Source of the DNA: a plasmid
DNA length: 64,000 bases
Strand: one strand, 5' to 3'
Sequence record: NZ_CP021276.1
Shown here: piece after piece, positions 36,608-45,821 of the stretch
How positions within the stretch are numbered: the first letter of the stretch is position 1
Layout of the letters: each line of letters starts with the position of its first letter
The notes under the pieces: generated by a model
Seen by the model: the letters and a program-made list of their open reading frames with translations, nothing else
What the model was told of the DNA's origin: nothing
Databases searched by the model: none
Made by a program: the position numbers and the translations under genes

Positions 36608-39600
36608 ATGTTAAGTCTGCGAGTCAAACCAATTAAAAAGCCTGGTTATTATTTTGATCAGGAAAATTATTATTTTACGAACCAATTGGTTACCCAATGG
36701 GTTGGATTAAGTGCTGCACGTCAAAATCTTTCTGGAGAAGTTAACGTAAAAACCCTTGAGTCTCTTGTCAGTGGCGAATTACCAAGCGGTGATGTGATTA
36801 AAGGCTTGAAATTAACTACTGGTGAAATAAGCAAGCGAGGCGGCTATGATTTAACTTTTTCTGCCCCAAAATCCGTATCCTATCTTGGGCTGGTCTGTGA
36901 ACATAAAGAATTTATTGATTTGCACCTCAATGCGGTAAAGACAGTCTTAAAACTGATTGAAAAAGAGGCGGCACAAGCGCGCAAATCAGGAAAAGAAGGC
37001 ATGGAATATGAAAAAACGGGGAATCTTTGTTTTGCTGCCATTCTCCATGATACCTCCAGAGAGCTTGATCCTCAGCTTCATGTGCATGCATTGTTGATGA
37101 ATTTCACCGAGCGGCTGGATGGCAAATGGCGTGCTTTGGCTTCTGATATCAGTCGCAATAATGGCACCATGGAGTGGATTATGGATAATCAAATCTTTTT
37201 GGGTCTTGTGTACCGCTCTGAAATGGCTCTCGGTTTAAAAGAAATGGGGCTCGAAATAGAGCATACGGGTGATGCTCATGGTCTATTTGAAATCAAGCAT
37301 TTTGATAAGGCATTGTTGGAGCAAATCTCTAAGCGCCGTGCCCAGGTTGAAGAACATATTAAAGGGATGCACTCTAATTCATTAAAAGCGTATGACAGGG
37401 CGACTCTGGATTCAAGGAAATCAAAGGAAATGGTTTCTCCAGAGGAATTACGCACACGATGGAGCGCTGAAAGTGAAGCGTTGGGCGTTAATCCAGCCAC
37501 CTATCTTGCCACCTTAAAAGAAAAAACTAAAGAATCGCATACACCAAAAGAAACCATGTCCAATAATCAAGAACTCGATAGAAGTGTTCTTGACGCAATT
37601 GCGCATTTAGAAGAAAAAAAACTAACCTTTACCTATCAGGAAGTATTACAGACGAGCCTTTATTTTTCCTTAGGTGAGCAGGGCTTTGAAGCACTGATGG
37701 CACGGATTGATAAAGAAATTGATGCACAAAATCTGATTGCTCTTAATACAGAAAACTTCTCTTTTACAACGAGTACGCTCATTAACAAGGAACAAGAACT
37801 CATTAGAAAAATCGTGAACTTCACACCCCAAAAAAAAGGCATAGAACGCAATACGGATAAGGTTTGCAAACTCACTGATAATGAGTCCATTCAAAAAGCA
37901 GTAACTCAAGCCTTATTTTATAAAGAAGGGGTTGTGCGCATCAAACAGCAAAGTGCTACCTCGCGTGAGCTCTTAAGTACTTTAATTGATTATTCACAGG
38001 ATTCAAAAAAAATTCGTATTCTTTGTCCTTCTGCTTATTCTGCGCGGACGATGAATAAGGACATGACCCAATCAGCGCCTACCCTGTGGCAATGGATTTT
38101 ATCTATTGGAAAACAGGATTTGTGTGAAACAGTTGCGGGCTTTAATTATCGCCATCGTTCAGAGCATAAATTACCTTTTTTTAACAGTAAAAAGGAGCGC
38201 GAGGTGCTGATTGTGGATGAATCACAGCGTCTTACTCCTGACGAGATGAATATTTTATTATCTATTGCCGATAAGCGTAGTGCCAAAGTCATTTTGCTGG
38301 AAAAATCACAATCCCTTTCTGGTTTTAAATCCGATATTCCCGACTTGCTGAATAAAGCCAGCATAAAAACATTTGAGGTTGATGACAGGAAAGCGCCTGC
38401 CACCAACATCAATCTCATAGAAGAAAAAACGATTGAAGGGCGTATTCTAAAAACAGCACAAATGTACAGTAACTTACCGTTGAACCAGAGGCAGAATACA
38501 AAAGTATTAACTGTCTCAAAGCTCGAAGCGAAAGAGGTCAATGAAGCAATCCGTAAGCAGTTAAAAGAGCACGGGGAGATTTCAGTAGATGAAAAGAGCA
38601 TCAATACGTTAACCCCTATGTCCTTGACCTTAAGTGAAAAAAAAATGGCCAAAAGTTATCAGCCCGATTGGGTATTAATCCAGAACACCCGTACAGAATC
38701 AAAAAAATTCACGGTAATCGGTGTCAATGAAAAAGACAATCAATTGATTGTTCGGAATCATAACGGGGTAAGATCACAACTTGCTGCTAAAAATATTACA
38801 GATTCCACGCAGGTTTATGAACAAACACCATTATCAGTAGGTATAGGAGATCAATTAATTGCTACGGGCAGTTTATCCTTTGAAGGATTAAAAATCGGTA
38901 ACCAATATGAGGTCACTGCATTTACCCGCCATGGAATAAAAATAAAAGATGGAAAAAGAACTATTCATCTTATCACGAGTAACGAAAAGCATTTCCCATT
39001 GAGCCATGCCTATGCCAAAACCATTTATTCTGATGATTTTAAACCCGTGAAACAAACCATTATGACACTACCGGCCTATGCGCTCAAACAAAATACCATG
39101 TCGGTATTATGCGAATCGAGTAAAGAAGAATTAATGATTATTACGGATGATGTGGACAAGGCTAATCGGTTTGCAATGAAGACTGCAGCAAAATCCTCGG
39201 CGATATCGCTGACTTTGAATGCTGCCAAAACCAATCATGGTGCACAAATTATTGACCATAGAGCCACGACTGATCTGCTCACTTCACTGGAGCAGGCCTT
39301 AACTATTTTAACCTCGGAAAAACCTCAAAAAAGTGATGCAGAAAAAGCGCTGAACTTTGCAATAGCCCATCTTTCAGAACGAGAAGCAGCCTTTACTCGG
39401 TCAGATTTGCTTAAGGTTGCGCTCACTCAGGCTATAGGAAAAGCAGGACTTAACGAATTAAATAACGTCCTGGATAAGGTCATGACTAATGGGGATTTAA
39501 TATCAGGGGGGAACGAGATTTTGACCACCAAAGAAGCGGTGGCATTTGAAGAGTCGATTATCAAGAATGTTAAAGCAGGTATTAACACCATAAAGCCGCT

Positions 39601-42445
39601 AATGAGTGGTGATGAAGCACGAAAACAATTAGAGCCCACACACCTTACCAAAGGCCAAAAAGAAGCATGTGAGTTAATCACGACTACAACTGATCAGTTT
39701 ATTATGATTCAGGGTTATGCAGGAACAGGAAAAACAACCATGACTCGAAGTGCGATTGACACCATCAGGCATGTCCAATCTATGACTCATGAAGAGGTGA
39801 AACTGATTGCGGTCGCGCCCACGCACCAGGCTGTAAAAGAAATGAGGGCGCTGGGAATTGAAGCGCAAACATTAAAGAGTTTTCTTATTGAACAAGAACA
39901 GGAAGTGACATTAAGCAAAGAAACACTGGTGCTGCTTGATGAATCTTCTATGGTCTCTAATCGAGATTGCGCAAGCCTCATCCAAAAAATCCATGATTCG
40001 GGCGCTCGTTGCGCAATGCTTGGCGATATTAGCCAGCATCAAAGCATTGAAAGCGGTAAGCCAAGCAAGATATTGATTCAGGAAGGAAGCATCAAGGTGG
40101 CCTGTATGGATGATTTGGTACGACAACAAGTCATCGAATACAAAAAGGCAATCGAAACATTAATCACGGGGGATATTGATAAGGCGTTGGCTCAGTTAGC
40201 GAATCAACCCTTAGACTCAATCACCCGAACTAAAGCCGATAGTCCTTACTACAACATGACCTCTTCAATTATTGAAACAGGCCATTCGACCCAAGCGTAC
40301 CTGCAACAAGAACACACTCAACAAGAATCGAAAGAACCCTTCCAGGAAGAATTAAAGGAAAAAAGCCCGATAGAAATGGCTGTAGGAGATTATTTATCAC
40401 GGACACCAGCATGCCGTGATAACACCATTGTTATCATTCATGAAAATAAAAAAAGGGAAGTTGCAAATGGTCTGATTAGAAATGCACTGATGAAAGAGTC
40501 TACCATAGGCCTTGAAAACAAAGAGTTCCCGCGGCTACTAAGCACGAATTACACCACTGCAGAGCTTTATTATTGTGAAACGTATCGGGATTGCTTAAAA
40601 AAGAAAGAAGAGTATTTTTTAAAGAAAGGAGAGCACTATTTCAAAGTGGTTTCGGTAGATGAGGCAGCGAAAGTAGTGGTATTAAATGATACGAAAGGAA
40701 ATAAATGCCTCTTTGTTCCTGAAAAAGAAAATAAAGACTGGAAGATTGAATTGTTTCAATCCATGCCAGGAAGAGTTTCGGTGGGTGAAAAAATTCATTT
40801 TAAAAAATCTGATAAGACTTTGGGACGTTTCGCTAATGAAAGGGTGCAGGTGACGGAGGTAAACGATGAGTCATTTACCGTAAAAGACAGTAGTGGCGTG
40901 GCGCACGTTCTGGAAAAAAAACAGATGAAGGATTCCCATTGGGATTATAGTTATACTGCTACCAGTTATTCAATTCAAGGGGCTTCATCCCCATTTGTTA
41001 TTGGAGTTGCTGAAACTAAAAATGCTCAAGTAAACCATCTGCGTTCATTTTATATCATGGTAACGCGAGGTTCCTTGCATGCCATGATTTATACGGACGA
41101 TCATAAAAAACTACGAAAACAACTTCGTGTTACTCCTGAAAAAACTTCTGCATTGGAATCGCTTGGCCTCCTGCATACCCCAATAAAGTCCAAAACTCCT
41201 AATGAGCAACCAAAATCACTCAAGCCAATGCATGGTATGCCCAAAATAAAGAACCAGGAACCTCGCTATGATGCGAATATGCTGTCACAAAATTTATCCG
41301 ACCAGGCTGAGCTCGTGATTGAATCACTACTTGGAGAGCCCAATAGAGCGCTTTCGTCAAAAACAGAATATCGATATGGTACTAAAGGCAGCTTAAGCAT
41401 CTGTTTAAGTGGAGAAAAAAGAGGAGTTTGGCATAACTTTGAAACAAAGGAAAAAGGAAACATGCTTCATTTGATTCAAAAAACATTAAATCTAAATTTT
41501 AAAGAAAGTCTTGAATATGCTGCCAAATTCACAGGTGATGACTTAAAAGAACGTATTAAATTAGCAAGCAAAAACCCTAATAAGATTCAAGCAATCGATT
41601 CTGATAAGAAAAGAAAAACATCAGATTATGGACTGCAATTAGCACGAGAATCGAAACCCATATCAGGCACAATAGCAGAGCGGTATTTAAAAGAAATCAG
41701 GAAAATTCATAATGTGTCTGGAGAAAATATTCGCTTTCATCCTCATGTCTATACTAAAGATACCGAAGAAGTTCGCTACAGGCCAGCACTATTGAATATT
41801 GCGCGGGACAAAGACAATAAAGTAGCCTGCGTTGAAGCAGTATACCTGGATAATGACACAGCAAATCAAGCAATAATGAAGATAAAGCCTAAGAAATCTT
41901 ATGGATTAAAAGCAGGCGCTGGAGTCATATTAAATGAGGGGAAAGGACATGAAAGTGTCACCTATATCGCAGAAGGTGTAGAAACAGGACTAAGCATCAG
42001 AGATGCAGTTCAAAATGAACGAGTTATAGCGACACTAGGGAAAGAAAATTTTGTAAATATCGATATGGCTTTGCTCACCGATAAAATAGTCATTTGCATG
42101 GATAATGATGGAAAACCCATTAAAGAGGACAGGGTAATTATTCAAACCATTGAACGATTGAAACAGCATGGAAAAACCGTAGAAATTGCCATTCCTCTGC
42201 GTCAAAAAGACTTTAATGATGTGATTAAAAGCGGGGGTATACAAGAAGTAGTTGATACATTAAATAAATCAGTTAGTGTCGATAAACTGATTGGAAGCCC
42301 CAATAAAACAGATTTGAATCAAGATCAAATTAAGAAGTGCCTTGATACCATTTCACGACAGATGAACCTTGAAATTCCTGAAATTAAAAACAATTCAATT
42401 GATAAATTGAAAACCCTTCAGCGAGAAGAAATGGAAATATATTAA
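36608..42445 (+). CDS. traI: TraI relaxase-helicase (MOBF) with C-terminal TOPRIM/primase-like extension
   Basis: 1945 aa. N-terminal TrwC/TraI relaxase (GYDLTFSAPKSVS, HDTSRELDPQLHVHALL). Helicase Walker A GYAGTGKT. Last ~400 aa carry TOPRIM-like E (YIAEGVETGLSI) and DxD (VICMDNDGKP) motifs. Confidence 0.85.
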   Translation: MLSLRVKPIKKPGYYFDQENYYFTNQLVTQWVGLSAARQNLSGEVNVKTLESLVSGELPSGDVIKGLKLTTGEISKRGGYDLTFSAPKSVSYLGLVCEHKEFIDLHLNAVKTVLKLIEKEAAQARKSGKEGMEYEKTGNLCFAAILHDTSRELDPQLHVHALLMNFTERLDGKWRALASDISRNNGTMEWIMDNQIFLGLVYRSEMALGLKEMGLEIEHTGDAHGLFEIKHFDKALLEQISKRRAQVEEHIKGMHSNSLKAYDRATLDSRKSKEMVSPEELRTRWSAESEALGVNPATYLATLKEKTKESHTPKETMSNNQELDRSVLDAIAHLEEKKLTFTYQEVLQTSLYFSLGEQGFEALMARIDKEIDAQNLIALNTENFSFTTSTLINKEQELIRKIVNFTPQKKGIERNTDKVCKLTDNESIQKAVTQALFYKEGVVRIKQQSATSRELLSTLIDYSQDSKKIRILCPSAYSARTMNKDMTQSAPTLWQWILSIGKQDLCETVAGFNYRHRSEHKLPFFNSKKEREVLIVDESQRLTPDEMNILLSIADKRSAKVILLEKSQSLSGFKSDIPDLLNKASIKTFEVDDRKAPATNINLIEEKTIEGRILKTAQMYSNLPLNQRQNTKVLTVSKLEAKEVNEAIRKQLKEHGEISVDEKSINTLTPMSLTLSEKKMAKSYQPDWVLIQNTRTESKKFTVIGVNEKDNQLIVRNHNGVRSQLAAKNITDSTQVYEQTPLSVGIGDQLIATGSLSFEGLKIGNQYEVTAFTRHGIKIKDGKRTIHLITSNEKHFPLSHAYAKTIYSDDFKPVKQTIMTLPAYALKQNTMSVLCESSKEELMIITDDVDKANRFAMKTAAKSSAISLTLNAAKTNHGAQIIDHRATTDLLTSLEQALTILTSEKPQKSDAEKALNFAIAHLSEREAAFTRSDLLKVALTQAIGKAGLNELNNVLDKVMTNGDLISGGNEILTTKEAVAFEESIIKNVKAGINTIKPLMSGDEARKQLEPTHLTKGQKEACELITTTTDQFIMIQGYAGTGKTTMTRSAIDTIRHVQSMTHEEVKLIAVAPTHQAVKEMRALGIEAQTLKSFLIEQEQEVTLSKETLVLLDESSMVSNRDCASLIQKIHDSGARCAMLGDISQHQSIESGKPSKILIQEGSIKVACMDDLVRQQVIEYKKAIETLITGDIDKALAQLANQPLDSITRTKADSPYYNMTSSIIETGHSTQAYLQQEHTQQESKEPFQEELKEKSPIEMAVGDYLSRTPACRDNTIVIIHENKKREVANGLIRNALMKESTIGLENKEFPRLLSTNYTTAELYYCETYRDCLKKKEEYFLKKGEHYFKVVSVDEAAKVVVLNDTKGNKCLFVPEKENKDWKIELFQSMPGRVSVGEKIHFKKSDKTLGRFANERVQVTEVNDESFTVKDSSGVAHVLEKKQMKDSHWDYSYTATSYSIQGASSPFVIGVAETKNAQVNHLRSFYIMVTRGSLHAMIYTDDHKKLRKQLRVTPEKTSALESLGLLHTPIKSKTPNEQPKSLKPMHGMPKIKNQEPRYDANMLSQNLSDQAELVIESLLGEPNRALSSKTEYRYGTKGSLSICLSGEKRGVWHNFETKEKGNMLHLIQKTLNLNFKESLEYAAKFTGDDLKERIKLASKNPNKIQAIDSDKKRKTSDYGLQLARESKPISGTIAERYLKEIRKIHNVSGENIRFHPHVYTKDTEEVRYRPALLNIARDKDNKVACVEAVYLDNDTANQAIMKIKPKKSYGLKAGAGVILNEGKGHESVTYIAEGVETGLSIRDAVQNERVIATLGKENFVNIDMALLTDKIVICMDNDGKPIKEDRVIIQTIERLKQHGKTVEIAIPLRQKDFNDVIKSGGIQEVVDTLNKSVSVDKLIGSPNKTDLNQDQIKKCLDTISRQMNLEIPEIKNNSIDKLKTLQREEMEIY

Positions 42446-44580: not shown

Positions 44581-44979
44581 CTACCCTAATTTAATCAACT
44601 CCCAATCACCAAAGTACCCATCTTTGGTTTTAATTAAATCTTCATAAACACGCATCTCTAAACCATCAGCAATCTCATCCCACCCTGTTACTTCCCTCGC
44701 TATATTAAAATACTCATCATTAATAAAAAACACTCTGGGAACTCCGTATGTCCAGATAATGCCATCAACACCAAAAAGTGTTGCTCCTTCAAAGCCCCAA
44801 TCATCCATTTCTTGTTCTGGGGTATTGCGTCCGTGGTATAGTCTTAATTTCATCAAATGTTCCTTTAATCTTGCTGTTGTTATCACGCTATTTTCAGGAT
44901 GAGGCAAAGGGATTTTTCTTTGCCTCTTAAAAAATTCCGTTACCTTTTTATTTCCATCATTTTTTCGGTTAACGTCCAC
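44581..44979 (-). CDS. Hypothetical protein, operonic with the DUF932 gene
   Basis: 132 aa, overlaps the upstream gene. Confidence 0.35.
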   Translation of the reverse strand: MDVNRKNDGNKKVTEFFKRQRKIPLPHPENSVITTARLKEHLMKLRLYHGRNTPEQEMDDWGFEGATLFGVDGIIWTYGVPRVFFINDEYFNIAREVTGWDEIADGLEMRVYEDLIKTKDGYFGDWELIKLG

Positions 44980-45821
44980 AATGCTCGATTTAATTTCACA
45001 TTTTGATCAATGGCTTTTACTTCTCTCGTTTTTGTTCGAGTGGTGTATCCGTATTTATTTAAACGATGGCCACGGATACCCCCTTTAATTAAGTTTTCTT
45101 GCAGGACATTAAACACCGTAAACAAATCATTATCTTTTTGATCAACATAACGCCTTGGTTGCAATAAACGCTCAGGAGCAACGATCATTGCACCCTCATC
45201 ATTAGAAAATTTTAGAGAATGGGCAGCTTCGGCAAAAATCATCTTTTCAGTATCGTTTAAATGAATTGAAGCCATATCATCTGATACATCGAGCATCTTG
45301 TTTGCAGTTTCAATCACTTTATAAGTGCCTTCAATAACATTTCCAACAACATCCCCCTGATGTTTAATTCTGATTTCGTCATACGATTGCCCAGCAATCA
45401 TTCCATTACCACACACAACCCGAAAAAGACCCGCCATTAGACGATAAGAAGACAGGCCATCATGAGAATTGATAAGAACAAGTTCTGGATAAAGTCCCTG
45501 ATTATTTTGAATGACATCATGGCGTTGAAAACGAAGCATGTGTTTTGCAAATGCTTTCGATTCTTCACTCAGGCTTTTAGTCTGAGTTGCCCAAGTTGGA
45601 AAAAATCCTTCTGACATTAATTTTTCAATGATTTGCTCTGTTGAGATTGGTGAGTACTGAGCACTTGTTTTGTGGGAACTTTCTTGTGTAAATATGGAAG
45701 GGGCTAATTTAAATAGTTTTTCTTTTGATAAAATGGGTAACATGATGTTTTCTCCTATGTTTTTACTATTGTTCTCAAGGAACAAATACAGTATCTCAAA
45801 AAAGCGCGTAATCGTCAACAA
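44940..45821 (-). CDS. DUF932-family protein (phage/plasmid-associated, common in ICEs)
   Basis: 293 aa, pattern recognition of the DUF932 family. Confidence 0.45.
   Translation of the reverse strand: MLTITRFFEILYLFLENNSKNIGENIMLPILSKEKLFKLAPSIFTQESSHKTSAQYSPISTEQIIEKLMSEGFFPTWATQTKSLSEESKAFAKHMLRFQRHDVIQNNQGLYPELVLINSHDGLSSYRLMAGLFRVVCGNGMIAGQSYDEIRIKHQGDVVGNVIEGTYKVIETANKMLDVSDDMASIHLNDTEKMIFAEAAHSLKFSNDEGAMIVAPERLLQPRRYVDQKDNDLFTVFNVLQENLIKGGIRGHRLNKYGYTTRTKTREVKAIDQNVKLNRALWTLTEKMMEIKR

Follow-up and report, generated by a model that had tools for sequence, protein, structure and literature searches.

The relaxase-helicase TraI encoded in a 64,000-nucleotide stretch of the plasmid record NZ_CP021276.1 (the window, to which all nucleotide positions below refer) ends in a module with the fold of a DnaG-type primase. 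The module has the domain order of a zinc-less zinc-binding domain (ZBD), the N-subdomain of an RNA-polymerase domain and a Toprim domain; its acidic active site is intact, it is under purifying selection, and its fusion to relaxase-helicases is widespread. From sequence comparisons and a structural model, we consider it probable (about 0.6) that the C-terminal ~390 amino acids of this MOBF TraI form a DnaG-type (Toprim) primase that belongs to the Sog/TraC family of conjugative primases and is competent for catalysis.

Fold, active site and conservation of the C-terminal module

The window gene is 100% identical to the RefSeq-annotated traI of the Legionella pneumophila conjugative plasmids NZ_CP021278.1 and NZ_CP015952.1, and PLSDB types these plasmids as MOBF, MPF_F. 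Its product combines a MOBF relaxase with a vestigial helicase, an active superfamily 1B (SF1B) helicase and the primase module, arranged as follows (residue numbers are those of TraI; pLDDT is the predicted local distance difference test score).

36608..42445, + strand: traI, 1945 amino acids, a single uninterrupted open reading frame that closes an F-type tra operon, directly after traD (open reading frame list, translation, TIGR02760, RefSeq)
36650..37480, + strand: TrwC-type (MOBF) relaxase domain, residues 15-291 (Pfam TrwC, E 2.4e-68; NCBIfam MobF, E 3.6e-69)
residues 667-744: TraI_2B (Pfam, E 6.3e-13)
39641..41152, + strand: active helicase region, residues ~1012-1515, with AAA_30 at residues 1012-1200 (Pfam AAA_30, E 1.7e-46)
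41153..41281, + strand: Pro/Lys-rich linker from helicase to primase module, residues ~1516-1557
41282..41572, + strand: zinc-less homolog of the DnaG-type ZBD, residues ~1559-1655
41624..41929, + strand: DnaG RNA-polymerase-domain N-subdomain (Pfam DUF7146, E 1.6e-17), residues 1673-1774
41963..42238, + strand: Toprim domain (Pfam Toprim_3, E 2.8e-14), residues 1786-1877
42239..42442, + strand: low-confidence helical tail, residues 1878-1945, ending REEMEIY (pLDDT 52-78 in the last 50 residues)

A preliminary description of this DNA had placed a TOPRIM/primase-type domain with a conserved Glu and DxD at the end of TraI, and the Pfam matches to DUF7146 and Toprim_3, the structural comparison and a profile search of PDB sequences all uphold it. 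The three strings that it quoted lie in the single 1945-residue frame: a conserved block, YRYGTKGSLSICLSGEKRGVWHNFETKEKGNMLHLI (residues 1588-1623, nucleotides 41369-41476), the string with the Toprim Glu, YIAEGVETGLSI (1786-1797, 41963-41998), and the DxD string, IVICMDNDGKP (1827-1837, 42086-42118). Its start of the region at 41230 needs adjustment, as this position falls at residue 1541 within the linker and is two bases off the reading frame; the module itself extends from about residue 1558 to 1880, with a Pfam match far beyond chance. The catalytic residues are E1789 (nucleotides 41972-41974), D1832 and D1834 (42101-42109), and D1868, N1870 and D1871 (42209-42220).

An AlphaFold2 model of residues 1558-1945, built on 44 homologs, had a mean pLDDT of 89. 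When this model was compared to known structures with Foldseek, the top 32 matches were all DnaG, T4 or T7 primases (best E 6e-11). DnaG primases also ranked best when PDB sequences were searched with a profile of the module, which aligned the DxD with DnaG motif V and DFND with DnaG motif VI; phmmer with the module as a single sequence gave no meaningful PDB match, and the profile search was needed. A Toprim fold with the Glu, the DxD and the acidic residues of motif VI is accompanied, on its N-terminal side, by an RNA-polymerase-domain N-subdomain with basic residues. Given the Foldseek matches and the motif V and VI alignment, the domain search and structure prediction that the preliminary description had proposed point to a complete DnaG layout (ZBD, RNA-polymerase N-subdomain, Toprim) rather than a bare Toprim domain, with only the DnaG helicase-binding C-terminal domain missing from the predicted fold.

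The conserved block was rightly singled out in the preliminary description, which had missed that this segment (YRYG...NFET...) is a DnaG-like zinc ribbon without any of its four zinc ligands. The CHC2 ligand positions read Y/G/N/T, a Zn_ribbon_DnaG match at residues 1603-1647 (E 0.022) lay below the Pfam threshold, and no N-terminal CHC2 zinc-binding domain was found in TraI.

Profile comparison by hhalign aligned the module with the N-terminal primase region of Sog from R64 over 190 columns (probability 93.8%, E 1.8e-7). Four motif pairs occur in the same order in Sog and the module, respectively: EYLTRKGI/RYLKEIRKI, FAEGYATAA/IAEGVETGL, CADNDH/CMDNDG and TDFNDL/KDFNDV. TraC of R751 contains Toprim_3, and its EGYATA (AEGVETG in the module) and DDD align in the same order; the match is weak (hhalign E 0.0012, probability 19%). 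The module thus has the homology to conjugative primase domains and the EGYATA-type motif expected of this family, with the TraC match being the weak one.

Conservation was examined among about 197 homologs, in which E1789, G1790, D1832, D1834, D1868, N1870 and D1871 of the Toprim domain and Y1693, R1698 and K1762 of the N-subdomain are each at least 98% conserved; R1709 is kept in about 90%. The ratio of nonsynonymous to synonymous substitution rates (dN/dS) was calculated against the pLELO traI, which is 87% identical to the window traI. It was 0.082 for the module, 0.083 for the helicase and 0.062 for the relaxase, with values of 0.06-0.07 in the catalytic subdomains of the module. Linker and tail evolve faster than the domains: residues 1516-1580 gave 0.33 with 51% amino acid identity, compared to 0.08 in the flanking domains, and the tail gave 0.22. 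Against the more distant pLPP-type Legionella TraI, the module is 38% identical, the relaxase 36% and the helicase 34%. These comparisons indicate strong purifying selection on the module, with conservation on a par with that of the relaxase and helicase.

A Toprim domain might also serve as a nuclease or in strand transfer (a second cleavage or termination, or other DNA processing) and not as part of a polymerase. We regard this as very improbable, since the match takes in the complete DnaG architecture, with 200-230 residues aligned across ZBD, N-subdomain and Toprim, since the Sog primase is the nearest relative in sequence that has been characterised, and since the relaxase domain already supplies cleavage and joining chemistry.

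Proposed delivery of the primase and alternative roles

If the module is an active primase, TraI, covalently bound at the 5' end of the T-strand, would enter the recipient with it and thereby deliver the primase in cis. The primase would lay RNA primers on the incoming strand and allow complementary-strand synthesis without recipient DnaG or RNA polymerase. As the helicase translocates 5'->3' on single-stranded DNA, helicase and primase in one chain could act as a primosome; we infer that a primase tethered to such a translocase would form a mobile, lagging-strand-like primosome on the T-strand. A second primase gene was not found in the window or on the whole plasmid (NZ_CP015952.1, 73.6 kb).

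Several points weigh against a primase that is delivered in this way. Transport of TraI into recipients is presumed from the F, R1 and R388 relaxases, and a folded extra domain of ~45 kDa would need to pass through the T4SS (type IV secretion system). All four CHC2 ligand positions are non-liganding in TraI and in about 175 homologs, and in DnaG and T7 gp4 the ZBD is needed for template recognition; a true CPFH...CFAC zinc ribbon is kept by a few stand-alone relatives, P0054 among them. Twinkle illustrates that a DnaG-like fold can survive without primase activity. Finally, the traI genes of Vibrio vulnificus (L010, 2378-8152), Shewanella and Photobacterium retain the module with both the Toprim Glu and the DxD replaced (e.g. 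IISTSIEN and IVLNQGNH), and the Glu is changed to Lys in Piscirickettsia (the traI 3' ends compared, L012, L013 and L014, form the Piscirickettsia, Shewanella and Photobacterium set). Because the module is kept despite dead catalytic residues, it must also have a non-catalytic role, possibly the main one.

These losses, in the zinc site throughout the family and in the Toprim domain of the four genera just named, would fit a module that is mainly structural, binding single-stranded DNA or docking to relaxosome partners, the coupling protein or the T-strand, with priming dispensable or absent; the fold would then be a relic, like that of metazoan Twinkle. In F TraI, for comparison, the C-terminal domain binds TraM. 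A conserved peptide motif in the tail is a further point in favor: [DE][RKQ][ED][ILVM] (as EREIY, DREI or EKEIY) is present within the final 8 residues of 33 of the 80 fused homologs, compared to 0.5% of background 8-residue windows, and the extreme C-terminus of the window TraI, ...REEMEIY (residues 1940-1945, nucleotides 42425-42442), carries it. This terminal peptide may be a docking or translocation signal. However, the Legionella lineages and about 98% of the 200 best homologs keep every acidic active-site residue together with the N-subdomain's basic residues, and dN/dS is low in the catalytic subdomains; retention to this degree would be unexpected for a purely structural role. The catalytic residues are likewise intact in three Legionella lineages, Cysteiniphilum and Sog. 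We therefore consider a mainly structural module unlikely.

The primase might instead act in the donor or in vegetative replication, perhaps as a separate C-terminal polypeptide made from an internal start, like RepB' of mobA/repB and the short forms of Sog and TraC. Met1558 exactly opens the module, a 388-residue stand-alone protein (P0001) is annotated from it in some Legionella records, and stand-alone homologs of about 300-350 residues are common on alpha-proteobacterial plasmids. In addition, neither a replication initiator nor a further primase is annotated elsewhere on the plasmid. However, the ATG at 41279 has no usable Shine-Dalgarno sequence (the nearest AGGA ends 19 nucleotides upstream), the donor replacement strand starts primer-free from the 3'-OH at nic in the established rolling-circle model, and 80 independent protein clusters keep the fusion. 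A separate product from Met1558 is possible, while an exclusive role of the primase in the donor or in replication seems to us distinctly improbable, more so than a structural one. We thus favor a primase that is competent and delivered with TraI.

P0001 carries the label 'Uncharacterized protein conserved in bacteria'. The annotation of the 73.6-kb NZ_CP015952.1 contains no replication initiator, SSB, PsiB or separate primase. The same plasmid encodes several toxin-antitoxin pairs and two csrA-like genes, one just upstream of the tra region and one about 14 kb downstream of traI.

Distribution of the fusion and proposed decay of the module

To the preliminary description, the joining of relaxase, helicase and primase in one protein had appeared unusual, a view that the wider comparison does not sustain. 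NCBIfam TIGR02760 (TraI_TIGR) matches TraI at 1188 bits, with a curated cut-off of 929.85, and aligns residues 13-1930 to model positions 15-1912 of 1960. As it covers TraI end to end, the curated family model already contains the C-terminal primase region. The TrwC-type relaxase and the SF1 helicase (AAA_30) likewise make TraI a regular MOBF relaxase-helicase.

An earlier word-indexed homolog search had returned only proteins of at most 656 residues and hence was blind to the fusion. An exhaustive HMMER search of 1.84 billion representative sequences with the module yielded 3644 proteins at E <= 1e-3, of which 296 reached E <= 1e-30. At least 900 residues precede the module in 80 of the 199 homologs collected; these proteins are typically 1900-2100 residues long, with the module at about 1550-1950. 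Pfam scans of examples gave the architecture TrwC, AAA_30, DUF7146 and Toprim_3 in P0059 and P0062, and DUF7146 with Toprim_3 also in the Rickettsiales homologs P0038 and P0044. A metagenomic relaxase-helicase (P0065) has MobA_MobL, AAA_30, DUF7146 and Toprim_3, which is the rickettsial TraA_Ti type. Its residues 954-1307 align with window positions 41177-42262 and its module is 44% identical to that of TraI, whereas the helicases are only about 25% identical; the cassette therefore appears to have moved between relaxase families (MOBF and MOBQ-type).

Among sequenced plasmids, tblastn detected the module in 560 records. Annotated traI genes contain it on plasmids of Legionella, Piscirickettsia, Vibrio, Shewanella and Photobacterium, as does mobF in Cysteiniphilum; on Rhizobiales and sphingomonad plasmids it forms a stand-alone gene annotated as 'toprim domain-containing protein'. 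The stand-alone gene of Agrobacterium pAtK224b adjoins a DUF932 gene (L009, 4317-5510) and ParB-like genes near a T4SS cluster. A DUF932 gene is also present in the window (44940-45821, - strand), about 2.5 kb downstream of traI. DUF932 beside toprim or traI genes may mark a group of establishment genes that recurs.

For TraA_Ti of Rickettsia bellii, a C-terminal Toprim primase was described in 2015 and was then considered unique to rickettsial relaxases (PMC4564193); given the distribution of homologs, that uniqueness does not hold. A Toprim region is also listed in TraI of the Orientia Rickettsiales amplified genetic element (RAGE; PMC10732058). Within the open-access literature, we found no paper on a Toprim primase with TrwC/MOBF relaxases or with Legionella TraI. 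The fusion is common and part of a curated family model, it has been reported from a sister relaxase family, and it follows the principle of MobA-RepB'. What is most original in this work is the degeneration series, together with a possible link to the C-terminal domain of F TraI.

The F-type TraI model PRK13709 (774 bits) aligns residues 12-1515 of TraI to model positions 14-1462 of 1752. From where this alignment ends, the primase module stands in place of the F TraI C-terminal domain, and the preliminary description was correct that classical F TraI lacks the three-part arrangement as such; F TraI may nevertheless keep a vestige of it. The Foldseek search also listed the F TraI C-terminal domain, 3fld (E 0.02, probability 0.84). 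A hidden Markov model (HMM) of F-like C-terminal domains matched module proteins in one consistent register, P0044 with 16.3 bits and three others with 8.8-9.3 bits; reversed sequences did not exceed 3.1 bits, and in 20 shuffles the best score was 8.4 bits. In that register, the F string 'LLADNMQ(D/E)GVRIAR' falls on 'YIAEGVETGLSI'. Profile-profile comparison of the F domain with the module was not significant (hhalign E 0.03-0.05, probability 1-2%), nor was the reciprocal HMM (5.8 bits). With the HMM of F-like C-terminal domains, the window TraI itself reached only 1.4 bits over the whole sequence, with no match in that register, and it gave no sequence match to TraI_C (PF07057, 3fld). The sequence evidence for homology is therefore weak and uneven, with few homologs exceeding the shuffled controls. 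The idea that F TraI preserves the module N-subdomain in vestigial form as its C-terminal domain is suggestive, and we give it roughly even odds.

A broader scenario, which we hold tentatively and at somewhat less than even odds, is that long relaxase-helicases ancestrally carried a portable primase cassette that decays stepwise. The Legionella-type module would be intact, that of Vibrio, Shewanella and Photobacterium dead but kept, and that of F/R1 reduced to the TraM-binding 3fld domain as a vestigial DnaG N-subdomain; in its intact form the cassette would provide a self-delivered primosome on the T-strand. In that case, the 'novel fold' seen in F TraI would represent a vestigial primase subdomain, and classical TraI a decayed three-part enzyme, not a predecessor. 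An essential but enigmatic domain in the best-studied relaxase would thereby be explained in evolutionary terms. We found no paper linking the F TraI C-terminal domain with DnaG in the open-access literature.

How the transferred single strand becomes duplex once in a new host is understood only in part, and this step limits plasmid host range. A relaxase with its own DnaG-type primase beside a 5'->3' helicase would offer a genetically tractable system for relaxase-delivered priming in establishment, as E1789 or D1832/D1834 are accessible to point mutation. It would be relevant in Legionella and other intracellular bacteria, where such plasmids and elements resembling integrative and conjugative elements spread. 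Although environmental and pathogen plasmids commonly carry the fusion, its only label is 'relaxase/helicase', and a third, predicted activity is therefore under-reported in annotation.

Comparison with known systems

TraI of F and R1 (MOBF12) is collinear with the window TraI through relaxase, vestigial helicase and active helicase to about residue 1515, and its gene occupies the same place after traD in the F-type operon. F TraI then ends in the non-catalytic TraI_C domain (PF07057, 3fld) and a disordered tail, not in a primase module. Compared to bacterial DnaG, T7 gp4 and T4 gp61, the TraI module is without zinc ligands and without the DnaB-binding C-terminal domain, and identity is only 13-18%. 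It is joined to an SF1B helicase, whereas DnaG-type primases work with a hexameric SF4 helicase.

Sog of the IncI1 plasmids R64/ColIb-P9 and TraC1 of the IncP plasmids RP4/R751 share Pfam Toprim_3 with the TraI module. All three are found on conjugative plasmids and have the motif order YL..(R/K)GI, AEG(Y/V)(A/E)T(A/G), DND/DDD and DFND. TraC1 and Sog are transferred into recipients (PMC7213743). Unlike the TraI module, Sog and TraC are separate proteins that are not joined to a relaxase; Sog is combined with LPD7 and DUF5710 and TraC with ArdC-N and a zincin peptidase, and neither DUF7146 nor the zinc-less ZBD was detected in them at the thresholds used.

TraA_Ti/TraI of the Rickettsiales RAGE (Rickettsia bellii, Orientia) has the same order of relaxase, SF1 helicase and C-terminal Toprim primase (PMC4564193, PMC10732058). 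Its relaxase is MOBQ-like (MobA_MobL), in contrast to the TrwC/MOBF relaxase of the window TraI.

In MobA-RepB' of RSF1010/R1162 (MOBQ), a relaxase is covalently linked to a primase, so that the pilot protein brings its own priming, as proposed here for TraI. RepB' is not a Toprim/DnaG-type primase. Unlike TraI, MobA is without a helicase, and an internal start additionally yields its primase as a separate product. According to a T4SS review, helicase domains are found on MOBF relaxases, and on some MOBQ relaxases a primase domain that transfer requires (PMC12857230); the passage of that review citing Henderson & Meyer 1999 gives the MobA-linked primase as required for conjugal mobilisation of R1162. 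Delivery of a primase by the relaxase, which the preliminary description had put forward, is on that passage's account already an established idea for MobA of R1162/RSF1010. By analogy, TraI would follow the logic that genetic work has demonstrated for MobA-RepB' of R1162, using a Sog/TraC-type enzyme.

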